This document shows positions 984 through 14,826 of a DNA stretch of 32,000 nucleotides, piece by piece. The notes under the pieces are model-generated. The model saw nothing but the letters and a program-made list of their open reading frames with translations. It was not told the DNA's origin and ran no database searches. The number at the start of each line of letters is the position of its first letter. The first letter of the stretch is position 1. Made by a program: the position numbers and the translations under genes. Source of the DNA: Massilicoli timonensis (GTDB lineage: Bacteria; Bacillota_I; Bacilli_A; Erysipelotrichales; Erysipelotrichaceae); NCBI RefSeq assembly GCF_900199515.1, contig NZ_LT963434.1, positions 693,272 through 725,271 on the forward strand, read 5' to 3'.

Positions 984-1652
984 TCAATACCATGAATCTC
1001 TTTCATGTTGTAATTCTTCTTCCATATATGGATCATAATAGTCTACTCTTTTTGGAGCAATTGAATCTATAAATGTTTGATACTTTAAAACAATACTTTC
1101 ATCAATTACTCTCTCGTCATAAGAGCGATGACTAAAGTCTATTTTTCGAAGTGTATCCAATCGCTTTTTGGCTGCCGTTTTAGACACTTTAAACCAAGAC
1201 ATCAAATTTTCAACGGTAATTTGCTTTCCTCTATTTATTAACTCATTGATAATTTGTTCTGGCATTAACATCTGTGCCGCAAAAAAGTTCGTTTCAACTT
1301 CATAAATTCCATACATATTTTTATTATCTAAATCATGATTCAATTGAATATGACCAAATTCATGATTTAGACTAAAACGTTGTCTCTCTTTACTAGAAAT
1401 TTCTTCATTATAGAAAATTATTCCTTTTCCCTCTAAATTTTGATAAATTGCATCTTGAGAACCAAATGTTTTAATATCTATACCATACATTCCTGCTTTT
1501 AAGTAACTTCGACATGCAATATTAGTTTTCTCCTTAATAACCTTTTTTATTGAAAAGGGAAAAGTTTCTATAACAATTGAAGACACTAAAACATCATTTG
1601 CTTTTTCCAACGCTTTTTTAAAATCTGGTTTTAAGCAATCACTATAAATCAT
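984..1652 (-). CDS. ImmA/IrrE family metallo-endopeptidase (CapP-like)
   Basis: ORF track 984..1694. HEFGHIQLNH gives an HEXXH zinc-peptidase motif in a typical ImmA/IrrE context, directly downstream of an XRE gene. I moved the start to the ATG at 1652 (GAGGGGG Shine-Dalgarno 6 nt upstream), which gives an 11-nt overlap with the XRE stop. Confidence 0.85.
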   Translation of the reverse strand: MIYSDCLKPDFKKALEKANDVLVSSIVIETFPFSIKKVIKEKTNIACRSYLKAGMYGIDIKTFGSQDAIYQNLEGKGIIFYNEEISSKERQRFSLNHEFGHIQLNHDLDNKNMYGIYEVETNFFAAQMLMPEQIINELINRGKQITVENLMSWFKVSKTAAKKRLDTLRKIDFSHRSYDERVIDESIVLKYQTFIDSIAPKRVDYYDPYMEEELQHERDSWY

Positions 1653-2004
1653 CATCTTCCCCCTCATCATCATTAAATATATCGTCAAAAACAACTTTTA
1701 GCATTTTTTCTGCTTTTTGAATCTGTTGGTCATCAAGTTGTTCCAAACCACGTTGGATATATGAAAGTTTTTTATTCACTGTTTCAATTTCATCTTCTAC
1801 TCGATTTCCTAATAGATCATCAATAGAAATACTATATAATTTTGATATTTTTAATAAAATATCATCTCGAGGTACAACTCCTTTATTTTCCCACATACTA
1901 ACTGCACCTTTTGTAACGCCTAGTTGATCCGCAATTTCTTGCATAGTAAATTTGTTGTTACTACGTATTCGCTTAATTGCTTTACTAAACTCTTTATTCG
2001 CCAT
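1642..2004 (-). CDS. XRE-family helix-turn-helix transcriptional regulator (CapH/ImmR-like)
   Basis: ORF track 1642..2037. FTMQEIADQLGVTKGAVSMWENKGVVPRDDILLKISKLYSISIDDLLG is a classic HTH_XRE segment. The start is set to ATG 2004 (MANKEF...), preceded by AAGGAGG. The C-terminal tail is acidic. Confidence 0.85.
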   Translation of the reverse strand: MANKEFSKAIKRIRSNNKFTMQEIADQLGVTKGAVSMWENKGVVPRDDILLKISKLYSISIDDLLGNRVEDEIETVNKKLSYIQRGLEQLDDQQIQKAEKMLKVVFDDIFNDDEGEDDDL

Positions 2005-2041
2005 AATATCCTCCTTAGCACATTTTATTTTGTACAATTTA

Positions 2042-4990: not shown

Positions 4991-5031
4991 TATAATACAG
5001 TTATATAATCTATTTATATAACTGTATTATA
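4991..5031. promoter_or_regulatory. perfect 18-bp inverted repeat, candidate TetR operator
   Basis: TATAATACAGTTATATAA (4991..5008), spacer tctat, TTATATAACTGTATTATA (5014..5031). It starts 14 nt upstream of the TetR ATG and overlaps TATAAT-like hexamers. Confidence 0.6.
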
Positions 5032-5110
5032 CAATGAATTTGTTATTTGTCAATTACGAAACAAACAAAAAAGGCAAAAAAGGCAGAGATTTCTCCCTGC
5101 CGCTTTGGTC

Positions 5111-5400
5111 TCATGCGAAGATGTTTTCTTTCTCCACAATTTCCATTGCACGCCCAAATATTATTCATTCTTTTTGTCCATTCTAAGGCGTTTTCTTCCT
5201 TCAGGCATTCCCGTAAAATACCCTGCGCGTGTTTCATCTGCTCTGTAAGTGTTTCAAAGCGTTCCTGTGCCTACCTGTCAATGTTGGCAAGGTAAGTATT
5301 CAGTTTTCCTCTTGTAAGCAGATTTGTGCAGGTAAGTCTTTGATATTCCTTTAAGTGTGCAAACCCACATGAATACAGTGTTTTTACGACATGCAAATTA
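5111..5400 (-). pseudogene. decayed tnpV-like gene (3' two-thirds)
   Basis: The minus-strand reading ...GFAHLKEYQRLTCTNLLTRGKLNTYLANIDR*AQERFETLTEQMKHAQG...EENALEWTKRMNNI... parallels the intact TnpV at 13186..13563 (NLLTSCKLNSYLAGVNEQAEEMFSRL...WVQRMNNIRNRAREIV). There is an in-frame TAG at 5271..5273. A frameshift precedes the ancestral C-terminus AMEIVEKENIFA*, whose stop is at 5111..5113. Confidence 0.6.
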
Positions 5401-5633
5401 TTCAAACTCGTTGCCGAGAACTACAACTTAACGCTTTTTGTTTATAAACCGTGTGATGTAGTTTTCGTATTATTCTGATAATCCATATTATACTGCCTGT
5501 ACGACGAGAATTTATCAATATCTTATCAGGTGCGATAAAACCGATGGTTGCGAGAAAAGAATAAGTGCAACCGGATTGGTTTTGCCAAATGTATTATAGC
5601 ACAAAGCGATATGCCTTGCAATAACTTTTTGAT

Positions 5634-5669
5634 TTTTTACACGCATATTTTTTGTTAATCGTGTAAAAA
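5634..5669. promoter_or_regulatory. 10-bp inverted repeat upstream of abiEi, candidate AbiEi operator
   Basis: TTTTTACACG (5634..5643), 16-nt spacer, CGTGTAAAAA (5660..5669). It lies immediately upstream of TTGTAA (5673..5678), 17 nt, TATACT (5696..5701). Confidence 0.4.
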
Positions 5670-5691
5670 TAGTTGTAATTTTTATCGATTA

Positions 5692-6354
5692 ATGCTATAC
5701 TATAATCACGCAAATAATAAAAAATGCGTGCAGAAAGTCGGTGAACTATTGAATAAACACGAAATAGCAATTGATGTTTTTAATAAAGTCGGAAGCATTG
5801 CGAAGACAGCAGACTTTGTTGCCGTCGGGCTAAAAAACTATGATGTCGTTTCCCTTTGCAATCAAGGTTATATAGAGCGTATTCGCAATGGCTTTTACAA
5901 ACTGCCTAACGCTGAAGAGCCAAAAGAAGAAGCTCTAATTTCTAAACTCCTGCCGCAAGGAATTGTTTGTGTAGAGTCTGCTCTATTTTATTATGGGTAC
6001 AGTGACTTTGCTCCTCGTGAATGGACAGTTGCTGTCCCCCGTTCCTTTTCAAGAGCAATCAAAGCAATGCAGGAAGTCCCTATCAAAGCTTATTATGTTC
6101 AGAACGAGTTTTACCATTACGGTGCTACTGTAGGTGACTTTAATGGTGTTGAATTAAAAGTTTATGACCGAGAGCGAACAATCTGTGATTGCTTTAAGTA
6201 TCGTTCAAAGCTTGATAGTGAAATGTTCAACAAAGCAATCAACGCTTATGTAGCAGATCCGAAAAAGAATCTCGCAAATCTTTCTAAATACGCAAAGGAT
6301 ATGGGCGTTTATACAAAACTTATGAATGTAATGGAGGTGCTGCTCAATGGCTGA
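5692..6354 (+). CDS. abiEi: type IV toxin-antitoxin/abortive-infection antitoxin AbiEi family protein
   Basis: ORF track, 220 aa. It has an N-terminal winged-HTH-like segment (GSIAKTADFVAVGLKNYDVVSLCNQGYIERIRNGFYKL) and a conserved C-terminal region (VYDRERTICDCFKY). It overlaps the downstream AbiEii gene by 8 nt. The true start is probably downstream of 5692 (GTG 5728 or TTG 5749), because the best -10 box lies inside the first codons. Confidence 0.8.
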   Translation: MLYYNHANNKKCVQKVGELLNKHEIAIDVFNKVGSIAKTADFVAVGLKNYDVVSLCNQGYIERIRNGFYKLPNAEEPKEEALISKLLPQGIVCVESALFYYGYSDFAPREWTVAVPRSFSRAIKAMQEVPIKAYYVQNEFYHYGATVGDFNGVELKVYDRERTICDCFKYRSKLDSEMFNKAINAYVADPKKNLANLSKYAKDMGVYTKLMNVMEVLLNG

Positions 6355-7243
6355 TATTGCCGCATCCGTGCTTGCACGACTGAAAAATAAGGCTGCCGAA
6401 AGCGGAAGAAGCTATCAGCTTTGTTTGCAGCTCTTTTGTCAGGAAGAATTTTTGCGCCGTTTGGAAAAATCCAAATATGCGGAAAATCTCGTTCTTAAAG
6501 GTGGTCTGTTTATTTACTCTGTTACCGACTTTGACAGCAGAGTAACGGTAGATGTTGATTTTCTTCTTCGGAGAGTACCAAATACTCCAGAACAGCTAAA
6601 ACCTGTACTGGAAGAAATCATATCCACGCCCACCGGCAATGATTTTATTACCTTTGAAATTAAAGATATTGCACCCATTGCAGTTGCAAAGAAATATGCC
6701 GGTATCGGAGCTTCTATTGTGGCTCGTATTAAAAACACACGAACGCCGTTTAGTATAGACTTTGGTGTGGGTGATGTTATCGTGCCGAAACAGGAAAAGA
6801 GAAAAATCCCGACACAGCTTGACGACTTCGCTGCGCCGGTAGTAAATACATATTCTCTTGAAACGACGATTGCTGAGAAAATAGACGCAATCCTCAGTCT
6901 GATGGAATTTTCCAGCCGAATGAAGGATTATTATGACATTTACTATCTTGCTAATAAATTTGATTTTGACGGCAAGGTGCTCACCGAAGCACTGAAGAAA
7001 ACTTTTGAAAATCGTGGACACGCCTTTACGATTGAACAGTTTGAACAGGTTATGAGCTTTGCAGACGATTCTGCTATGCAGAAAAAGTGGAAAGCATTCT
7101 GTCGGAAGATTGATACTCAAACTGATGATTTCAATACGGTGTTAAAAATAATTGAGGCGTTTTTGACAAAACCGTTTACAGTGGCGGTCAAAGGTGAAAA
7201 ATTTACTGAAAAATGGTCTGCCGCTAATGGCGAATGGATGTAA
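6347..7243 (+). CDS. abiEii: nucleotidyltransferase AbiEii/AbiGii family toxin
   Basis: ORF track, 298 aa. The N-terminus MADIAASVLARLKNKAAESGRSYQLCLQLFCQEEFLRRL...LVLKGG is characteristic of AbiEii. It is paired with AbiEi. Confidence 0.9.
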   Translation: MADIAASVLARLKNKAAESGRSYQLCLQLFCQEEFLRRLEKSKYAENLVLKGGLFIYSVTDFDSRVTVDVDFLLRRVPNTPEQLKPVLEEIISTPTGNDFITFEIKDIAPIAVAKKYAGIGASIVARIKNTRTPFSIDFGVGDVIVPKQEKRKIPTQLDDFAAPVVNTYSLETTIAEKIDAILSLMEFSSRMKDYYDIYYLANKFDFDGKVLTEALKKTFENRGHAFTIEQFEQVMSFADDSAMQKKWKAFCRKIDTQTDDFNTVLKIIEAFLTKPFTVAVKGEKFTEKWSAANGEWM

Positions 7244-7259
7244 TTAGGAGGACGAGAAA

Positions 7260-7766
7260 ATGGAGTGTAAAGACATTTTAAATTTAATAGCTATAATTGT
7301 AATTCCTATAGTTGCCGTCTTGATTGGACAACATTTGCAAAATAGAGCAGAAATAAGAAAAGATAAAATGCACATCTTCAAAGTGCTTATGACTTCTCGA
7401 ATATATGGCTGGACACAGGAAAGTGTGCATTGCCTTAATATTATTGATATTGTATTTTCAGATGATAAAAAAGTCCGTAATGCCTGGAAAGATTTATATG
7501 ACAAATATTGCGTTAAGAACCCAGATGAAGTGCAACTCAAAAAAATTCAGAACGCTCAATATAAATTATTGGAAACAATAGCAAAATCTTTGGGATATAA
7601 GGATAAGGTTACTTGGGAAACCATTCAAAATCCATATATTCCAGATGGAATGATACGGCAACAGCAGGAACAAGCAGCATCTCGACAAGCATACAATGAT
7701 ATTTTGCTAAATATGCAACATATGATACCCAAAAATAATAAGGTGGATGAAAACAATGAGCACTAA
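7260..7766 (+). CDS. hypothetical protein with an N-terminal membrane anchor
   Basis: ORF track, 168 aa. A strong AGGAGGA RBS sits 7 nt upstream. One hydrophobic helix (ILNLIAIIVIPIVAVLIG) is followed by a charged soluble part. The stop overlaps the mod start. It resembles small DUF-type proteins by memory only; this is unverified. Confidence 0.6.
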   Translation: MECKDILNLIAIIVIPIVAVLIGQHLQNRAEIRKDKMHIFKVLMTSRIYGWTQESVHCLNIIDIVFSDDKKVRNAWKDLYDKYCVKNPDEVQLKKIQNAQYKLLETIAKSLGYKDKVTWETIQNPYIPDGMIRQQQEQAASRQAYNDILLNMQHMIPKNNKVDENNEH

Positions 7767-9462
7767 TATATCAAAACAAAAGCGTGAGGACTTATTGAAT
7801 AAAATCAAAGAAATCCGAACCTTTATTTCTGCTGCTCAACAGGATGAGAACACGGGCAATCTTCTTTCCTATCTTTCCGATTTAGAGAAAGATGTAAACG
7901 GCAAGAAATATGGACTTGTATTCGAAGAACACCGTGAGGAAATCGACGATGTGCTTGATACCCATACACCGGTACTGACCGAAGAGAAAGACCTGTTCAT
8001 TGACAACGGCGGACAAATGAATTTTCTCATTGAAGGGGATAACCTTGCTTCTCTTAAATTACTCGAAAAGACACATAAGGGAAAAATAAAAATGATTTAT
8101 ATAGATCCGCCGTATAATACAGCAAATAAAGATTTTGCGTATGATGATACAAGAGTGGATGCTACTGATACATTTAGACATAGCAAATGGCTATCTTTTA
8201 TGAGAGTAAGACTCAAAATTGCTCGAAATTTGTTAAGTGATGATGGTATTCTATTTATTTCAATAGATGATAACGAGCAGGCTGACTTAAAATTGTTGTG
8301 TGACGAAATATTCAAAGAAGAAAACTTTTTCTCTCAGGTTATTGTTCAGTCAAACAAGAGGGGGCAAACCTATAAGCAAATTGCAAAAACACACGAATAT
8401 TTACTTATTTACACACGCTCTCCAGAAGCAGAATTTAACGAGATTGATAAAACTGATGAGGATAATGACCTTAATCTTCTTGACGGCATCAGTGCATACA
8501 ATGTAAGAGAGTTAAGAAATCGTAATCCTAAATTTGGTAAACACAACCGTCCTAATTTGTTTTACCCGATATATGTAAATCCTTTGACTATTGACAAAGA
8601 TGGATTTTGCCCTGTTTCATTAACACAAACTGACGAATATTACATAGAAGTTTTCCCTTATAACTCAACAGGAGTAGAAAGTTGTTGGCGTTGGGGAACA
8701 AAATTATTTAGCGAAAATGTAAATGCTGATACACAAATGAGTAATGTTGTTGCTCGAGCCAAAAGAGATGGCGCATTTAACATATACGAAAAATATCGTA
8801 AAACAACTTATAAGGCAAAATCAATATGGGTTGAAACAGATGTCATTACTGAAAAAGGTACTGTAGAACTTGGTGAACTCGGTCTTGCAGAGCGTTTTCC
8901 GTTTCCAAAACCATTGTTTTTACTAAAAAAATGCTTACAGATTGGAACAAATCCTAACGATATAATTCTCGACTTCTTCGCCGGCAGTGGAACAACGGGA
9001 CACGCAGTGATGAAACTAAATGCAGAAGATGGCGGTAATCGTAAATTTATCCTTTGCACCAACAACGAAAACAACATCTGCCGTGAGGTCACATACGAGC
9101 GTATCAAGCGCGTTATTGACAAAGAGGGTTACTCCGCTTCGTTGAAATATTACAAGGTAGATTATATCCCCATAAGTGAGCGTATGTATTATGAATATGC
9201 GGACGAGTTGTTAAAGCATATCCGTGAACTTGTCGAACTTGAAAACGGCGTTAACTTCACAAACAACGCAGAAATAGCTATCGTTCTTACAGAAGAAGAA
9301 CTTGATAACTTTATTTCTCAACTTGAAAACAACACCAAATGTCGGAAACTATATTTAGGGCACGATATTCTGATAGACGCACAGCAAGCACAAGTTTTGA
9401 GGGATAGGAAGATTACGGCAAATATCATTCCTGACTACTATTACAAAGAATTGGAGGGCTAA
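7756..9462 (+). CDS. mod: type III restriction-modification N6-adenine DNA methyltransferase (Mod)
   Basis: ORF track 7747..9462. Motif IV is IYIDPPYNT and the later motif I is DFFAGSGTTGHAV (beta-class order). It is followed 2 nt later by a Res-type helicase-nuclease. The start is set to ATG 7756 (AAGGTGG 9 nt upstream). Confidence 0.9.
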   Translation: MSTNISKQKREDLLNKIKEIRTFISAAQQDENTGNLLSYLSDLEKDVNGKKYGLVFEEHREEIDDVLDTHTPVLTEEKDLFIDNGGQMNFLIEGDNLASLKLLEKTHKGKIKMIYIDPPYNTANKDFAYDDTRVDATDTFRHSKWLSFMRVRLKIARNLLSDDGILFISIDDNEQADLKLLCDEIFKEENFFSQVIVQSNKRGQTYKQIAKTHEYLLIYTRSPEAEFNEIDKTDEDNDLNLLDGISAYNVRELRNRNPKFGKHNRPNLFYPIYVNPLTIDKDGFCPVSLTQTDEYYIEVFPYNSTGVESCWRWGTKLFSENVNADTQMSNVVARAKRDGAFNIYEKYRKTTYKAKSIWVETDVITEKGTVELGELGLAERFPFPKPLFLLKKCLQIGTNPNDIILDFFAGSGTTGHAVMKLNAEDGGNRKFILCTNNENNICREVTYERIKRVIDKEGYSASLKYYKVDYIPISERMYYEYADELLKHIRELVELENGVNFTNNAEIAIVLTEEELDNFISQLENNTKCRKLYLGHDILIDAQQAQVLRDRKITANIIPDYYYKELEG

Positions 9463-9464
9463 AA

Positions 9465-11660
9465 ATGGATATTATCCTTGCGAACTTTCAGATAAAAGCT
9501 ATCGCCGATTTAACTGAAGCGATGGAACAGCCGAATAGGGATATTATCCTCAAAAGCTGTACGGGAAGCGGAAAAACCATTATACTCACTCATTTTATGG
9601 ATGAATATTTAAAAAGCAATCATAAAACGGTATTTATTTGGCTTACTCCCGGTAAAGGCAACCTTGAGGAACAAAGTAAAGAAAAAATGGATCGGTATAT
9701 CCACGGAAGTCAGACAAAATTAATTTCCGACATTATGACTGCCGGATTTGAAGAAAACGATGCTTGCTTTATTAACTGGGAAAAGCTGACTAAGAAAGGG
9801 AACAATGCTTTGAAAGACAGCGAGCGCACAAACTTTATCGAACACATACGCAACGCTCTTGATAGCGGGCTGTGCTTTAAAATTATTGTTGATGAGTCCC
9901 ATCAAAACGACACAATCAAAGCGGATGATATTATTGAGTTGTTTCATTCAGATAAAATAATCCGATGTTCAGCTACGCCTAAAAATTATAAGAATGCCAT
10001 TTTAATCGATATTCCCGAAGAGGATGTTATTGCAGAGGGCTTAATTAAAAAGTTGCTTATTATTAATGAGAATTTTGAGCAACACATAAATGTGGATGAT
10101 CAGATTACATATTTGATTGATAAAGCGATAGATAAGCAGAGAGAACTACATTCTGAATACCTGAATCAAAAATCAGAAATCAACCCTCTTATTATCGTAC
10201 AAATTCCAAACAAGTCTGACGCTTTACTTGACAGAGTTGAAGAATATTTTGAAAGTAAAGGGATTACTTACGAAAATAATTTACTTGCTGTATGGCTTTC
10301 GGACAAAAAACAAAACCTTGAAGATATTGAGGAACCAAATGCAGAACCTATTGCAGTTATTATCAAACAGGCTGTGGCTACAGGTTGGGATTGTCCTCGT
10401 GCACAGATTCTTGTAAAGCTCCGTGATAATATGAGCGAGGTGTTTGAAATTCAGACTATCGGACGAATTCGCCGTATGCCCGAAGCAAAACACTATGAGA
10501 GTGATTTGCTTGATAGCTGCTATCTATATACTTTAGATGAGAAGTTCACAGAAAGCGTAAAGCTGAGCTTAGGACAAGGAGCGCTCGACGCATACAAGAT
10601 TTTTTTAAAACCGGAGTATCGTTCATTTACACTCATCAGCGAATACAAAACCGATGTCCCATATCCTCGTGATGCAAAACTATCACTTAAAGTAATACAC
10701 AAGTATTTTGAAAAGAAATATCATATCACAGGTGACACTGCTAAAAACAAAGCGCTGTTGGAAGCACACGGTTATTCCTTTTCTGAAGATATTATTGATT
10801 TTACAAAGTCGGGGGCTGTAAGTACCTTATCAAAAGAAAATATAACTGGATTGAACGATATATCGATACACGAGCCGTTGAACACACATAAACACGGCAA
10901 AGAATATCATCATTGTGTCGCAGAAATAGGATATAAAGTAAATTTGGATTACAATAGTACGAATACTATTATGCGTAAACTGTTCCTTAACGGATTGCGT
11001 TGTGAGTCTAAAATTTTAAAAATCGAAACAAGAGAGCTATATGCTTTCATAATCAATAATAAGCGTTTATTGATTGAGGATGTTCGTGATGCTATGGCGG
11101 ATGAATCCCTACAACTGGCTTTGACAATTCCGAAAACAACAGAAAAACCCATCGGTTTTCCGTTAGAAATGATTTTTACCTACGATGGGACTTCGAAATC
11201 GCAGACAGAATTTTCTAAAAATGTATATAAAGGATATCTTTCCTCTGCCGAAAAGCGTTCCTTACCTGAGAAGCTTTTTGAACGCTATTGTGAAAACAGC
11301 AAAAACATTCAGTGGTTTTACAAAAACGGAGATAAGGGGATTGAATATTTTTCTATCGTTTATACGGATAACTTTGGAAAGCAAAAATCATTTTATCCTG
11401 ATTATATTATTGGAACAACTGACAATAAGGTATGGATAATCGAAACAAAAGGTGGATTTACTAAGTCTGGCGATAGTGAAGACATCGATAAGTATACTGC
11501 TAAAAAATTTGGAGTCTTAAAGGCTTATATCGACAAATATAAACTGCTTGGCGGTATTGTTCGACAAGATAAACAAAGCAGTGAACTTTGCATTTGCACA
11601 GAAACATATTCTGACGATATTAAAAGTGACAGTTGGAAACTGCTATCTGATGTATTATAA
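9465..11660 (+). CDS. res: type III restriction enzyme Res subunit (SF2 helicase plus PD-(D/E)XK nuclease)
   Basis: ORF track, 731 aa. Walker A is SCTGSGKT. DEAH-like motif is IVDESH. SAT motif is CSATP. Motif VI is QTIGRIRR. The C-terminal nuclease-like motif is FYPDYIIG...VWIIETKGG. Confidence 0.85.
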   Translation: MDIILANFQIKAIADLTEAMEQPNRDIILKSCTGSGKTIILTHFMDEYLKSNHKTVFIWLTPGKGNLEEQSKEKMDRYIHGSQTKLISDIMTAGFEENDACFINWEKLTKKGNNALKDSERTNFIEHIRNALDSGLCFKIIVDESHQNDTIKADDIIELFHSDKIIRCSATPKNYKNAILIDIPEEDVIAEGLIKKLLIINENFEQHINVDDQITYLIDKAIDKQRELHSEYLNQKSEINPLIIVQIPNKSDALLDRVEEYFESKGITYENNLLAVWLSDKKQNLEDIEEPNAEPIAVIIKQAVATGWDCPRAQILVKLRDNMSEVFEIQTIGRIRRMPEAKHYESDLLDSCYLYTLDEKFTESVKLSLGQGALDAYKIFLKPEYRSFTLISEYKTDVPYPRDAKLSLKVIHKYFEKKYHITGDTAKNKALLEAHGYSFSEDIIDFTKSGAVSTLSKENITGLNDISIHEPLNTHKHGKEYHHCVAEIGYKVNLDYNSTNTIMRKLFLNGLRCESKILKIETRELYAFIINNKRLLIEDVRDAMADESLQLALTIPKTTEKPIGFPLEMIFTYDGTSKSQTEFSKNVYKGYLSSAEKRSLPEKLFERYCENSKNIQWFYKNGDKGIEYFSIVYTDNFGKQKSFYPDYIIGTTDNKVWIIETKGGFTKSGDSEDIDKYTAKKFGVLKAYIDKYKLLGGIVRQDKQSSELCICTETYSDDIKSDSWKLLSDVL

Positions 11661-11675
11661 GAGAGGAAAATAAAA

Positions 11676-12605
11676 ATGAGTAGTCAAGAACCAAAGAAAA
11701 ATGTTCCAATTTACTTTTATTATCTTACAATATCAAAACAAAAGGATAGTAACGATTCTTCCGCTTACGATATACAAAAAATATTGGATTCATTTTCTAG
11801 ATTACTATCATATGTTACAGCGAAGAATCTGACCGATAGAAAAAAGGACATCAAAACTTCAGAAAAAGTTGTATGGCTTGATTCATATGAAGATTTAAAA
11901 AACGGAAATTACAATATTATTTTTAAGTCCGCAAAATATAATCACGTTAGAAATGAGATTGACACAGAAACAATGACTGAATTGGGCACACGTAAGCGCA
12001 AGCAGGATGGCGATGAAGAAAAGACCCATTTATGCATTCGTTATAACGCCGGAGAATACCGATTGCTTACTGTTCACGAAAGCAACCATTATGGTGTGAC
12101 ATTAAATTGTATAGTCGACTATTTGAATACTCAATTCGTAAGTTATAATGAAGATACGGATGATAAATATCATTATTCGATATCGTATGAAATTATGCCA
12201 GGAGAAGATTTTCTTTCATCAATCAAAAAAGCAAAAACTATGTCAATATTAAAGCTGGTAGTGAGCAAAGAAGATATCAAAGATGATTTTATGATGTTTG
12301 CTGGAAGAAATGATATTGCTGATGAAGTTGAAATATGTCTTAAACGCCCAAAAGGAGCTAAAAAGTTCCCTGAAAATTTGATAAAGGCGTATTTTGATAA
12401 TTCTCAGAATAAGGTAACAGGAAAAATCAAGAAAGTTACTATTAAAGGAACAAATTCATTCGGTCAATTTGAAGTTGATACTGAGCTTATGAAAATGAAA
12501 CATTATTTATCAGTTTCAGCTGAAATGGTAACCAACGAAGTAAACAGTTCGGATTTCTTTGAAAAAGCACAAGAATTCATAGAAGAAACGAGGGATAAAC
12601 AATGA
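11676..12605 (+). CDS. hypothetical soluble protein, 309 aa, no recognisable catalytic motif
   Basis: ORF track. A GAGAGGAA RBS sits about 8 nt upstream, and the gene starts 15 nt after the res stop. The protein is rich in charged residues. I found no Walker A, HEXXH, DxD or HTH pattern. Its stop overlaps the next start (ATGA). Confidence 0.7.
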   Translation: MSSQEPKKNVPIYFYYLTISKQKDSNDSSAYDIQKILDSFSRLLSYVTAKNLTDRKKDIKTSEKVVWLDSYEDLKNGNYNIIFKSAKYNHVRNEIDTETMTELGTRKRKQDGDEEKTHLCIRYNAGEYRLLTVHESNHYGVTLNCIVDYLNTQFVSYNEDTDDKYHYSISYEIMPGEDFLSSIKKAKTMSILKLVVSKEDIKDDFMMFAGRNDIADEVEICLKRPKGAKKFPENLIKAYFDNSQNKVTGKIKKVTIKGTNSFGQFEVDTELMKMKHYLSVSAEMVTNEVNSSDFFEKAQEFIEETRDKQ

Positions 12606-13141
12606 AAAGTATAATTTTTATTCCTCTAAAGGATTACTTTTTTTCAAGGAAAAATGTATTAATTAAATTTCTCATTCCAATGCTGATTGCTTTAGCTGCA
12701 TTATTATTATCTATATTTTTTAATATAGGTAATTCAGAAAAAGTTATATCAACCTTTTCTGGATTTATAGATACGCAGATAAATATTGTAGCAATTTTAA
12801 TTTCTTTTTCTATAGCGATTATTACAATTTTAGTGTCTGCTGACAACAAGAATATACAATGCTTAAAAGAAACCGAATCAAACAAAACACAATATAAGCC
12901 TGTTAACGGTAAGCAATTATCTCTATTTCAAATTTTGCTTTCTAATATAACATACAATGTTATTGTAGAAATAATATACCTAGTTGGGCTTATAGCTATT
13001 TCTCTTATAAAAACTATTTTGCCCATTGTATCATTGAAATTCATTGTATCTATTTGTCTCTTTATTATTTTACACATATTGTTTGTGTTACTTGAATCGG
13101 TCTCTCAAATGTATCTGACTTTTTGGGCAAATAAAAAATAG
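12602..13141 (+). CDS. hypothetical integral membrane protein, 179 aa, about four TM helices
   Basis: ORF track. A GAGGGA RBS is present and an ATGA overlap links it to the upstream gene. Hydrophobic stretches: LIKFLIPMLIALAALLLSIFF, INIVAILISFSIAIITILVS, NVIVEIIYLVGLIAISLI, FIVSICLFIILHILFVLL. GC is very low (20% in my count of the line at 12601). Confidence 0.7.
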   Translation: MKSIIFIPLKDYFFSRKNVLIKFLIPMLIALAALLLSIFFNIGNSEKVISTFSGFIDTQINIVAILISFSIAIITILVSADNKNIQCLKETESNKTQYKPVNGKQLSLFQILLSNITYNVIVEIIYLVGLIAISLIKTILPIVSLKFIVSICLFIILHILFVLLESVSQMYLTFWANKK

Positions 13142-13143
13142 TT

Positions 13144-13187
13144 ATTGACGGCAGGGACAGTTTTGATCTCCTGCCGTCAATTTGTTT
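13144..13187. terminator. bidirectional stem-loop terminator between convergent genes
   Basis: ATTGACGGCAGG (13144..13155), 14-nt loop, CCTGCCGTCAAT (13170..13181), then TTGTTTA. It lies between the stop at 13141 (+) and the tnpV stop at 13186 (-). Confidence 0.6.
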
Positions 13188-13563
13188 ATACTGTATAAAT
13201 CAATTCTTTATCTACAATCTCCCTCGCTCTGTTACGAATGTTATTCATCCTCTGCACCCAAAGCATTTGATTTTCAGCTTTGAGCTTTTCTGTTACATTT
13301 TCTTTTTCCGCCAGTTGTTTTACCAGCCGGGAAAACATTTCTTCTGCCTGTTCATTAACCCCGGCAAGGTAACTGTTCAGCTTGCAGGAAGTCAGCAGAT
13401 TCACATAAAGAGTCCTTTTATGCTCCTTAATATACCTCAAGTGTCTTTGTCCCCACACGCCCACTGGCTTCTGTTCTTCTTCGGACAGTGAGAGGCAAGG
13501 GAGATAATAATCTCCCTGCCGTACATAAGTGCCGCCCATTTCTTCAAAAATCGTCTTTGCCAT
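13186..13563 (-). CDS. tnpV: transposon-encoded TnpV-like protein
   Basis: ORF track, 125 aa. MAKTIFEEMGGTYVRQGDYYLPCLSL...WGQRHLRYIKEHKRTLYVNLLTSCKLNSYL matches the TnpV family of Tn4451-type mobilizable transposons as I recall it. Confidence 0.75.
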   Translation of the reverse strand: MAKTIFEEMGGTYVRQGDYYLPCLSLSEEEQKPVGVWGQRHLRYIKEHKRTLYVNLLTSCKLNSYLAGVNEQAEEMFSRLVKQLAEKENVTEKLKAENQMLWVQRMNNIRNRAREIVDKELIYTV

Positions 13564-13572
13564 TTTGTTTTC

Positions 13573-14826
13573 CTACCTTTCATAATTTTTATTTTTTGAA
13601 CGCTTTTCACGCTCTTGTGACTGTGTTTTCGGTGCAGGAATCGGCTCATAAAGAATACTTTTTTCCTGTTTCTTGAACCTCTCAAGGATACCGTCAATAA
13701 ATTCTTTGACCGCTTTAGGCGCCGCTTTTAACGCTTCCAGATACGGTCTGCATTTTTCCGTCAGCTCAGATAAAGCTGTTTTTAGCCGTGAAACTTCAGA
13801 TTGTAATGACCATATCTGCCTTGTTAGATACTGATTTTCTTCCTGTAATTTCTTTGCTTCGGACACCGCTGAGTAGCTTTGTTTTGCAAGGGTGGTTAGC
13901 TTTTCGTAGTCGTCTGCCGACACGGTATATTTGCCTGTAAACGACTTTTTGCCTGAGCTGTCAATCTCATGAAAGGTCATAAAAGCATTGTGATTTTCTT
14001 CATACCGTACCTGTTCTCCAGCGATTTTTTCTTGAAGACTTGATAGTTTCTCTTTGTCTTTCTTGATTTTAAATTCAAGTGAAGCTAAGTTTTCAGCAGT
14101 ACTTCCACGCTCTCCACGGCTGAATCCGTTAAAGCCAGCTTCCTGCATATGCTCATAAAACTTGTCCTGTAATATGCTATAGGAAGCGTGATAGACTGGC
14201 TTTCCTTTGCTGTTCAGAATGGGATTTCCGTTTTCATCAAGCGCCTTTTCGGACTTCCATTTCTTTGAATGGCTCACTTGATGAATGACCTCTTTTACCT
14301 TTCCTACCAGTTCAGGATCTTTACATCGTTTCGTCCAGCGCACATCCTTGTCCACCACCGGCAGCGCCATAATATGCAGATGATAGTGATAAATCGGTCT
14401 GCCGTACTTCTCAGTCATTGCTGTATTCAGTTCATCAGCGTGCATTACTGCAGATACAATATTGTCTTTACCGTAGAGCTTTTCTGCAAAATGGAAGGCT
14501 TCTTCATAGAACCGACAGGCATATTCATAGCCGCCGTTCTGCTCGAAATAGTCGGTATTTACATCCATAATCATCTCGTCAAAGACTGTCGCATCAGGTT
14601 TTAACCCTTTCAAGGATACCTCTCCTGCGGCAATCATTTGGTCAAGATGTTCGTTATAGGTCAGCTCTCCGCAGCTCTTAAAACTTACATTCATAGGTGT
14701 GCGTGAGAGGTCAACATTCATATTTTCATAGCTGTCATTTTTACGCTCGATGTGTCGCTCAAACTTGCCAACCGTTGCTCTTGTACGGGTTTCGATACGG
14801 GCGACACTGAAGTTTTGTTTCGCCAT
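13573..14826 (-). CDS. MobV-family (Pre/Mob, TnpZ-like) relaxase
   Basis: ORF track, 417 aa. The N-terminus is FSVARIETRTRATVGKFERHIERK. The HxDE...HxH motif is MHADE...YHYHLHIMALPV. The C-terminal half is coiled-coil rich. Confidence 0.85.
   Translation of the reverse strand: MAKQNFSVARIETRTRATVGKFERHIERKNDSYENMNVDLSRTPMNVSFKSCGELTYNEHLDQMIAAGEVSLKGLKPDATVFDEMIMDVNTDYFEQNGGYEYACRFYEEAFHFAEKLYGKDNIVSAVMHADELNTAMTEKYGRPIYHYHLHIMALPVVDKDVRWTKRCKDPELVGKVKEVIHQVSHSKKWKSEKALDENGNPILNSKGKPVYHASYSILQDKFYEHMQEAGFNGFSRGERGSTAENLASLEFKIKKDKEKLSSLQEKIAGEQVRYEENHNAFMTFHEIDSSGKKSFTGKYTVSADDYEKLTTLAKQSYSAVSEAKKLQEENQYLTRQIWSLQSEVSRLKTALSELTEKCRPYLEALKAAPKAVKEFIDGILERFKKQEKSILYEPIPAPKTQSQEREKRSKNKNYER

Follow-up and report, generated by a model that had tools for sequence, protein, structure and literature searches.

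No abortive-infection (Abi) systems have been known for longer than those of the RexAB type, of which five have been characterised, none of them in Firmicutes (PMC12894663). In phage lambda, the sensor RexA binds DNA and, when a phage infects, opens the small membrane channel RexB, by which the cell is shut down. The soluble protein RexA is composed of a split globular domain that is interrupted by a dimerisation domain, and its actinophage homologues dimerise and bind DNA non-specifically (PMC11077077). For the system of Pseudomonas putida prophage P1 (RexABpp, PP_5643/PP_5644), defence through RexB-dependent membrane damage has been shown experimentally, and the ratio of the two proteins matters both there and in lambda Rex (PMC12894663). 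Prophage-encoded pairs of a RexA-like protein and a membrane protein that exclude heterotypic phages are also found in the actinophages Sbash (gp30/gp31), CarolAnn (gp44/gp43) and Butters (gp30/gp31). A literature search for 'RexA-like' returned nothing on Clostridia or on linkage to restriction-modification (R-M). Here, a stretch of 32,000 nucleotides (nt) of Massilicoli timonensis DNA (contig NZ_LT963434.1, positions 693,272 to 725,271; referred to as the window) was analysed with respect to two adjacent genes, A and B, that are located at the end of a type III R-M operon. The pair is probably a RexAB-type Abi (phage-exclusion) module, and it most likely constitutes a divergent family within this known defence type, not a new kind or principle of defence. 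An initial annotation, made from the sequence alone, had proposed a soluble sensor combined with a small multi-transmembrane effector as an Abi module, which agrees with the lambda RexA fold of A and the RexA/RexB architecture of the pair. Its description of the module as undescribed has to be given up, as RexAB-type defence is the oldest Abi type on record and A and B represent a divergent sequence family of that type.

The order typical of RexAB-type systems, with a gene for a soluble protein followed by a closely coupled gene for a membrane protein, is found in the window pair. Gene A starts 15 nt after the res stop codon at position 11660 and is preceded, at a distance of 9 nt from its ATG, by the Shine-Dalgarno-like GAGAGG(AA) (GAGAGGAA); for gene B, the corresponding GAGGGA is positioned 6 nt ahead of the ATG. 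The two reading frames overlap by ATGA (12602-12605). These ribosome-binding sites, the short gap after res and the overlap had all been listed in the initial annotation and are borne out by the sequence and the list of open reading frames (ORFs).

No match to A or B was obtained in Pfam, NCBIfam or PADLOC, even at relaxed thresholds (E up to 1-10), and searches of the PDB sequences with the single A sequence (phmmer) or the family profile (hmmsearch) returned only noise and no RexA. A matches the PHROG family phrog_4672, whose function is unassigned there (E 1e-19), and has 359 relatives among the representatives of clusters formed at 50% identity. Homologues were detected by tblastn against phage genomes in the Anaerostipes phages AC844P1-3 and in Roseburia phage Jekyll, the latter carrying the label 'RexA-like protein' given by the depositors of GenBank entry LR596902. 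When A was modelled with AlphaFold2 (AF2) from an alignment of 90 sequences (pLDDT 93.1, pTM 0.84) and the model was compared with the PDB using Foldseek, the only significant matches were to lambda RexA (8TWQ chain B, E 7.3e-9; chain A, E 1.2e-6; probability 1.00), spanning 320-325 columns and covering the full length, with the next match at 7.5e-3. Profile searches and structure prediction had both been proposed in the initial annotation: the former came back empty for Pfam and PADLOC, and the latter, through AF2 and Foldseek, led from A to lambda RexA. The modelled chain begins with a beta-rich N-terminal domain containing one long helix, continues into an alpha/beta domain that is inserted, and ends, after a return strand, in a long helix at the C-terminus; this order of elements fits the published RexA topology. 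At the level of sequence, the A profile was aligned by hhalign with an alignment of five RexA sequences, giving a collinear match over 173 columns (A 112-300 to RexA 84-264) with a score of 28.9; 40 block-shuffles reached at most 20.4 and the reversed alignment 14.0, and the sequence link to RexA appears faint but real. The relatives of lambda RexA in IMG/VR were almost all identical and could not be used as a profile. As judged from its model, A has the RexA fold; its sequence family is separate from both Pfam RexA and PHROG 12654.

Within the A family, the motifs FKSAKY..R (82-92), DGDEEKTH (111-118) and LDTE (267-270) are strongly conserved. An equation of the conserved G140 of the family with the G140 hinge of lambda RexA was dropped, the hhalign register placing lambda G140 near residue 176 of A. 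Weak Pfam matches to DUF6731 were observed in four of 92 family members (best E 6.9e-5), and DUF6731 may be a related uncharacterised family with a RexA fold. In a protein of 576 amino acids (aa), P0246, residues 392-570 correspond to the C-terminal 180 residues of A at 70% identity; P0246 may have arisen by fusion, or it may be a frameshifted call that takes in an upstream gene.

Protein B was predicted by AF2 to form a bundle of four transmembrane (TM) helices (pLDDT 82.8), and hydrophobic segments were located by hydropathy at residues ~20-38, 60-78, 108-139 and 142-177. The earlier characterisation of B as almost entirely four hydrophobic helices was right about the number of TMs and slightly overstated otherwise, since TM2 and TM3 are separated by a polar loop of ~28 residues and an amphipathic helix is present at the N-terminus. 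B matches phrog_4613 (E 1.5e-14) and has 492 relatives at 90% clustering. In BFVD, the best matches of both A (E 5e-17, TM-score 0.65) and B (an uncharacterised protein, E 0.15) belong to Siphoviridae sp. ctylc9; as both come from one phage, the pair appears to be conserved even at 14-20% identity. On alignment of B with 22 RexB sequences, hhalign returned scores of 24.7-25.4, higher than those of a reversed control and of 60 column or block shuffles (maximum 23.6). This alignment pairs E123 in TM3 with RexB E94 and H158 in TM4 with RexB H128. The two residues, which are the sole ionisable residues inside these helices, are spaced by 35 positions in B and by 34 in RexB; E123 and H158 are conserved in 17 of 20 representatives of the B family, and E94 and H128 in almost all RexB sequences. 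These results are suggestive of a distant homology of B to RexB, with size, topology and the Glu/His pair as the only features that both have in common.

Several observations weigh against an assignment of the pair to the RexAB type. For the window proteins, Pfam RexA (PF15969) and RexB (PF15968) were absent at E<=10, and no RexA was found among the 25 Pfam families listed for 92 members of the A family (E<=1). Lambda RexA and RexB belong to phrog_12654 and phrog_14878, that is, to families other than those matched by A and B. The hhalign probabilities were low, with 13.6% for A against the five RexA sequences, 2.4% for A against lambda RexA alone and ~10-12% for B against RexB. Foldseek superimposed A on 8twq with a TM-score of 0.33-0.36 and a root-mean-square deviation of 18 A, values that would be expected of a hinged two-domain protein. 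Comparison of the B model with BFVD gave no significant match (best E 0.15) and no RexB among the 50 matches listed. The window copy, moreover, lies outside any prophage, and a CI-like repressor is absent from its vicinity. Finally, by analogy with the characterised systems, the direction of the mechanism is not guaranteed, since the roles of the two proteins are reversed in the Rex-like system of Butters.

On the Butters model, A would be the toxic or antiviral effector and B would sequester it until infection. The Butters system works in this manner (PMC12894663), and the conserved acidic and basic motifs of A could form an active site. This arrangement is nevertheless considered very unlikely for A and B: the membrane protein is the effector in four of the five characterised RexAB-type systems (PMC12894663), the ionisable Glu and His that are conserved within TM3 and TM4 of B are more in keeping with a channel that conducts or is gated than with a passive anchor, and no nuclease or other known enzyme family was matched by A in Pfam or in sequence and structure searches of the PDB.

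The conservation of the pair was followed in two surveys, in line with the neighbourhood comparison that had been proposed in the initial annotation. In the forward survey, 48 loci were collected from a one-genome-per-species collection of Clostridia with 13 closer A sequences as queries. In the reverse survey, 80 metagenome loci were retrieved by similarity to Res alone, 68 of which had at least 1.5 kb of downstream sequence. A and B were adjacent in every intact relative with enough flanking sequence, the distance between the two genes being -4 to +6 nt in the majority of the related genome loci, and the pairing was kept at 28-31% identity in the phages Jekyll and AC844P2 and in an IMG/VR contig (L074). 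The co-occurrence of the two genes across genomes was thus confirmed, both with res and, in phages, without any R-M system. In 38 of the 48 loci, res was located 1-27 nt upstream of A, an arrangement that held down to identities of 42% for A and 67% for res. Starting from Res, A and B were found directly after res in 61 of the 68 loci, corresponding to a linkage of ~90% in the clade of the window; the exceptions comprised two truncated res genes, one decayed A gene without B and four loci of a sister Res clade.

Outside this clade, the setting of the pair was different. Four genome loci (L043-L045, L051) carry the pair without R-M genes, and distant A/B pairs (25-45% identity) reside in phages or prophages with no R-M system nearby. 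In phage Jekyll, the pair follows the lysis genes; in L051, L074 and L083-L086, it is placed between a late regulator and the terminase genes, just upstream of terminase; and in L078, the A homologue directly follows a CI-like repressor gene that is divergent from a Cro-like gene, which is the position of rexA in lambda. In two distantly related loci (L075:949-1470 and L078:3599-4111, both on the minus strand), a B-like four-TM gene adjoins the A-like gene in convergent orientation, and the two stop codons are separated by 8-11 nt. Decay of the pair was noted at L020:10094-10804 and in L041, L133, L137, L088, L112 and L128, in the form of 5'-truncated or frameshifted A genes or of missing B genes; in L020, mod and res were lost and A was truncated. 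Such fairly frequent loss or inactivation is as expected if the module is costly.

Seen from the clade of the window, the tight linkage to res could mean that the pair is a guard coupled to the R-M system, in which A monitors the Mod/Res complex or its DNA products and triggers B, either upon inhibition of restriction by the phage through anti-restriction factors or upon accumulation of Res-generated or stalled DNA-protein intermediates. The PrrC anticodon nuclease of the type I R-M system EcoprrI would be the analogue of such a guard. The short res-A gap retained at considerable divergence, the high recovery of A and B in the reverse survey, the organisation of the window genes in one co-directional array with gaps of at most 16 nt and a single terminator, and the DNA binding of RexA-type proteins (PMC11077077) would all be compatible with such a function. 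The guard is held to be unlikely, as the copies in phages and prophages as well as those in L043-L045 and L051 have no mod or res nearby, and as the genes that follow res in the sister clade show the pattern of a cargo slot, not that of an obligate partner.

In this sister Res clade (~65% identity, full-length res), the slot after res is occupied by other genes. Two loci, L161 (4839-7864) and L166 (5572 onward), contain a pair of genes for a 232-aa and a 776-aa protein, the latter being a HamB (Hachiman) helicase (PADLOC E 4e-52) and the former an unrecognised partner. In L163 (2668-4662) and L164 (6154-8148), a gene for a 664-aa protein overlaps the end of res; this protein has no Pfam or PADLOC match and is a candidate for a new defence gene. 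The slot after res looks like a swap site for defence modules. Since it holds either the HamB pair or the 664-aa gene in the sister clade, the A/B pair can be regarded as exchangeable defence cargo and not as an R-M subunit, and since one of the alternatives is the helicase of a recognised autonomous system, its use also supports A/B as a defence module. A role of A and B as obligate subunits of the type III R-M system was discarded because the pair is also found in the absence of R-M genes and res can be followed by other genes. The R-M-free copies in phages and the exchange of genes in the slot favour an autonomous, exchangeable module. The other role named in the initial annotation, that of a backup to the type III R-M system, stays plausible given the ~90% linkage to res in the clade of the window. 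It is at the same time conceivable, if improbable, that the slot is a general docking site at which alternative sensors of DNA state are plugged into the restriction enzyme, with the pair being wired to the R-M system; the RexAB-like pair, the HamB pair and the 664-aa protein would then be alternative second-line effectors.

The features of the locus are compiled in Table 1. From AbiEi to gene B (5692 to 13141), seven genes are arranged in the same direction with gaps that never exceed 16 nt. The hairpin and U-rich tail behind gene B have a folding energy of -22.7 kcal/mol (mean of shuffles, -9.6; z = -5.8; none of 200 shuffles as stable), and the hairpin abuts the stop codon of the convergent tnpV gene. 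A simple consensus scan found no other terminator-like site on the plus strand in 5000-13141, which upholds the earlier notion of a sole terminator for the whole array.

Table 1. Genes and expression signals of the A/B locus (positions refer to the window).
Feature	Position	Strand	Basis
AbiEi and AbiEii, toxin-antitoxin/Abi pair, 16 nt upstream of the DUF6680 gene	5692-6354, 6347-7243	+	PADLOC AbiEi 7e-60, AbiEii 1.7e-94; Pfam AbiEii
DUF6680 protein, 168 aa, one N-terminal TM helix, first gene of the mod-res-A-B operon	7260..7766	+	Pfam PF20385 1.4e-47; translation
Type III Mod methyltransferase	7747..9462	+	Pfam N6_N4_Mtase; PADLOC MTase_III 6.5e-114
Type III-like Res, 731 aa, SF2 helicase domain and C-terminal PD..ExK motif	9465..11660	+	Pfam ResIII/DEAD; PADLOC REase_III; NCBIfam restriction endonuclease region 601-666
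Shine-Dalgarno-like GAGAGGAA for gene A, within the 15-nt gap after res	11661..11668	+	Read from sequence
Gene A, 309-aa soluble protein, RexA-like two-domain fold, putative DNA-binding dimeric sensor	11676..12605	+	ATG start; ORF confirmed; AF2, Foldseek, PHROG phrog_4672
Shine-Dalgarno-like GAGGGA for gene B, inside the end of gene A	12590..12595	+	Read from sequence
Gene B, 179-aa four-TM membrane protein, putative RexB-like effector (ion channel or pore)	12602..13141	+	ATG start; ORF confirmed; AF2, hydropathy, PHROG phrog_4613
Intrinsic terminator-like hairpin (13144-13181) with UUGUUU tail, closing the plus-strand array	13144..13187	+	Folding energy
TnpV	13186-13563	-	Pfam TnpV
MobV relaxase	13573-14826	-	Pfam Mob_Pre; NCBIfam MobV

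The defence context assumed in the initial annotation is confirmed by the AbiEi/AbiEii genes and the type III mod and res genes behind them. The DUF6680 gene overlaps the start of mod by 20 nt and keeps its position in many related loci; a literature search on DUF6680 retrieved no papers. The R-M system looks complete because Res combines superfamily 2 (SF2) helicase motifs with a C-terminal PD..ExK motif, which reads YPDYII...VWIIETKG in the translation and by which a defective or helicase-only Res was ruled out. TnpV, whose gene also comes after the A/B pair in many related loci, and MobV belong to a mobilizable element that carries the defence cassette. Further downstream, an AAA_25 ATPase and a NikA-like protein are encoded on the opposite strand. 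The G+C content of the window changes in sharp steps, being 29-41% in the first ~13 kb, 39-46% between 13 and 17 kb and 54-64% in the remainder, and the high-GC part encodes proteins of a conjugative element (ParB, DUF6017, a BRO/ANT antirepressor and a T4 coupling protein). From these steps in G+C and the gene content, it follows that the defence cassette is cargo of a low-GC mobilizable unit beside a high-GC conjugative element. When the cassette was searched against plasmids by megablast, no match was obtained. At the left end of the window (984-2037, minus strand), the gene for an ImmA/IrrE-type M78 peptidase overlaps an upstream ORF of 131 aa; the two may form an XRE/ImmR-ImmA-like regulatory pair of a mobile element.

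As the pair is always found on mobile DNA, either in phages or on the TnpV/MobV element, it could also serve its carrier in a way unrelated to defence, for example as a RexA-like protein that modulates DNA transactions or a genetic switch, an addiction module, or a lysis or regulatory membrane protein. RexA of lambda takes part in the lysis-lysogeny switch independently of RexB, and its fold resembles RdgC (PMC11077077). RdgC itself acts in recombination. Of the explanations weighed here, this is the least probable: there is no repressor switch in the window that could be modulated; RdgC is absent from the top 50 PDB matches of A, a list headed by RexA; and the strict retention of the four-TM partner, the AbiE and R-M neighbours and the replacement by HamB point to defence cargo.

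If the pair is a RexAB-type Abi module, its action may be pictured as follows. By analogy with the characterised systems, A would sense DNA, B would act as a channel and the two together would confer a defence phenotype. During infection, A, soluble and probably dimeric, would bind DNA or a phage-made DNA-protein complex, as lambda RexA and the homologues characterised so far suggest. Once activated, A would engage B in the inner membrane, whose four TM helices would open as an ion channel or pore, so that membrane potential and ATP levels collapse, the infected cell arrests and the phage fails. A fixed ratio of A to B would be set by the ATGA overlap. The family probably originated in temperate phages of gut Clostridia, as a moron expressed in the lysogen. 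One lineage, that of the window's clade, would have been captured by a type III R-M operon (DUF6680-mod-res), in the slot behind res, and this operon would be spread through gut Clostridia by TnpV/MobV elements, with AbiE often accompanying it. In this position, transcription from the R-M promoter presumably extends into the pair, which would provide a second, independent layer of defence.

With its 359 clusters at 50% identity, the A/B family adds a large RexAB-like group that Pfam, PADLOC and NCBIfam fail to capture and that occurs commonly in Clostridia of the human and animal gut as well as in the temperate phages of these bacteria. The E123/H158 pair of B, which is also present in RexB, offers a concrete hypothesis for a channel gate. 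The varied slot after res constitutes a natural system in which to ask whether Abi modules are merely co-transferred with R-M systems or functionally coupled to them, and it can be mined for further new defence genes.

Among the known systems, lambda RexA/RexB shares with A/B the succession of a closely coupled soluble and membrane gene. A has the two-domain fold of RexA (Foldseek E 7.3e-9), and B, like RexB, is small and has four TMs with an equally spaced Glu in TM3 and His in TM4. In prophages, relatives of A occupy the same place as lambda rexA, after a CI-like repressor. A and B differ from their lambda counterparts in falling outside the RexA and RexB sequence families and in their length, A being 30 residues longer and B 35 residues longer, with the ~28-residue polar loop. 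The hosts are Clostridia, whereas those of lambda are enterobacteria, and the window copy belongs to the type III R-M operon of a mobilizable element instead of to a phage immunity region. The Sbash, CarolAnn and Butters systems likewise combine a soluble RexA-like protein with a membrane protein (PMC11077077, PMC12894663); compared by description, they differ in having actinobacterial hosts and no link to an R-M operon and, in the case of Butters, in that the soluble protein is the effector.

Kiwa also consists of a soluble and a four-TM protein of roughly similar sizes. In Kiwa, KwaA precedes KwaB, whereas the order is reversed in A/B, and A has a RexA-like fold. Kiwa was rejected as an identity of the pair on account of this opposite order and of the lack of a KwaA or KwaB match in PADLOC at E<=1 and of a DUF4868 match in Pfam at E<=10, and the resemblance pointed out in the initial annotation fails on the same searches. 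A further comparison is provided by PrrC, an anticodon nuclease that is embedded in the type I R-M system EcoprrI and held latent by the R-M complex. As with A/B, an Abi gene is placed inside an R-M operon and co-transcribed with it, giving two layers of defence; PrrC, in contrast, is a single cytoplasmic tRNA nuclease, physically bound to the R-M complex, and A/B is a putative two-protein membrane system. RexABpp was recognised, in the same way as A/B, by a RexA match in structure or profile together with a four-TM partner that had no detectable homology to RexB (PMC12894663). Compared by description, it belongs to another sequence family and phylum and is situated near a CI-like repressor in a cryptic prophage instead of an R-M operon; it provides the best functional precedent for A and B.

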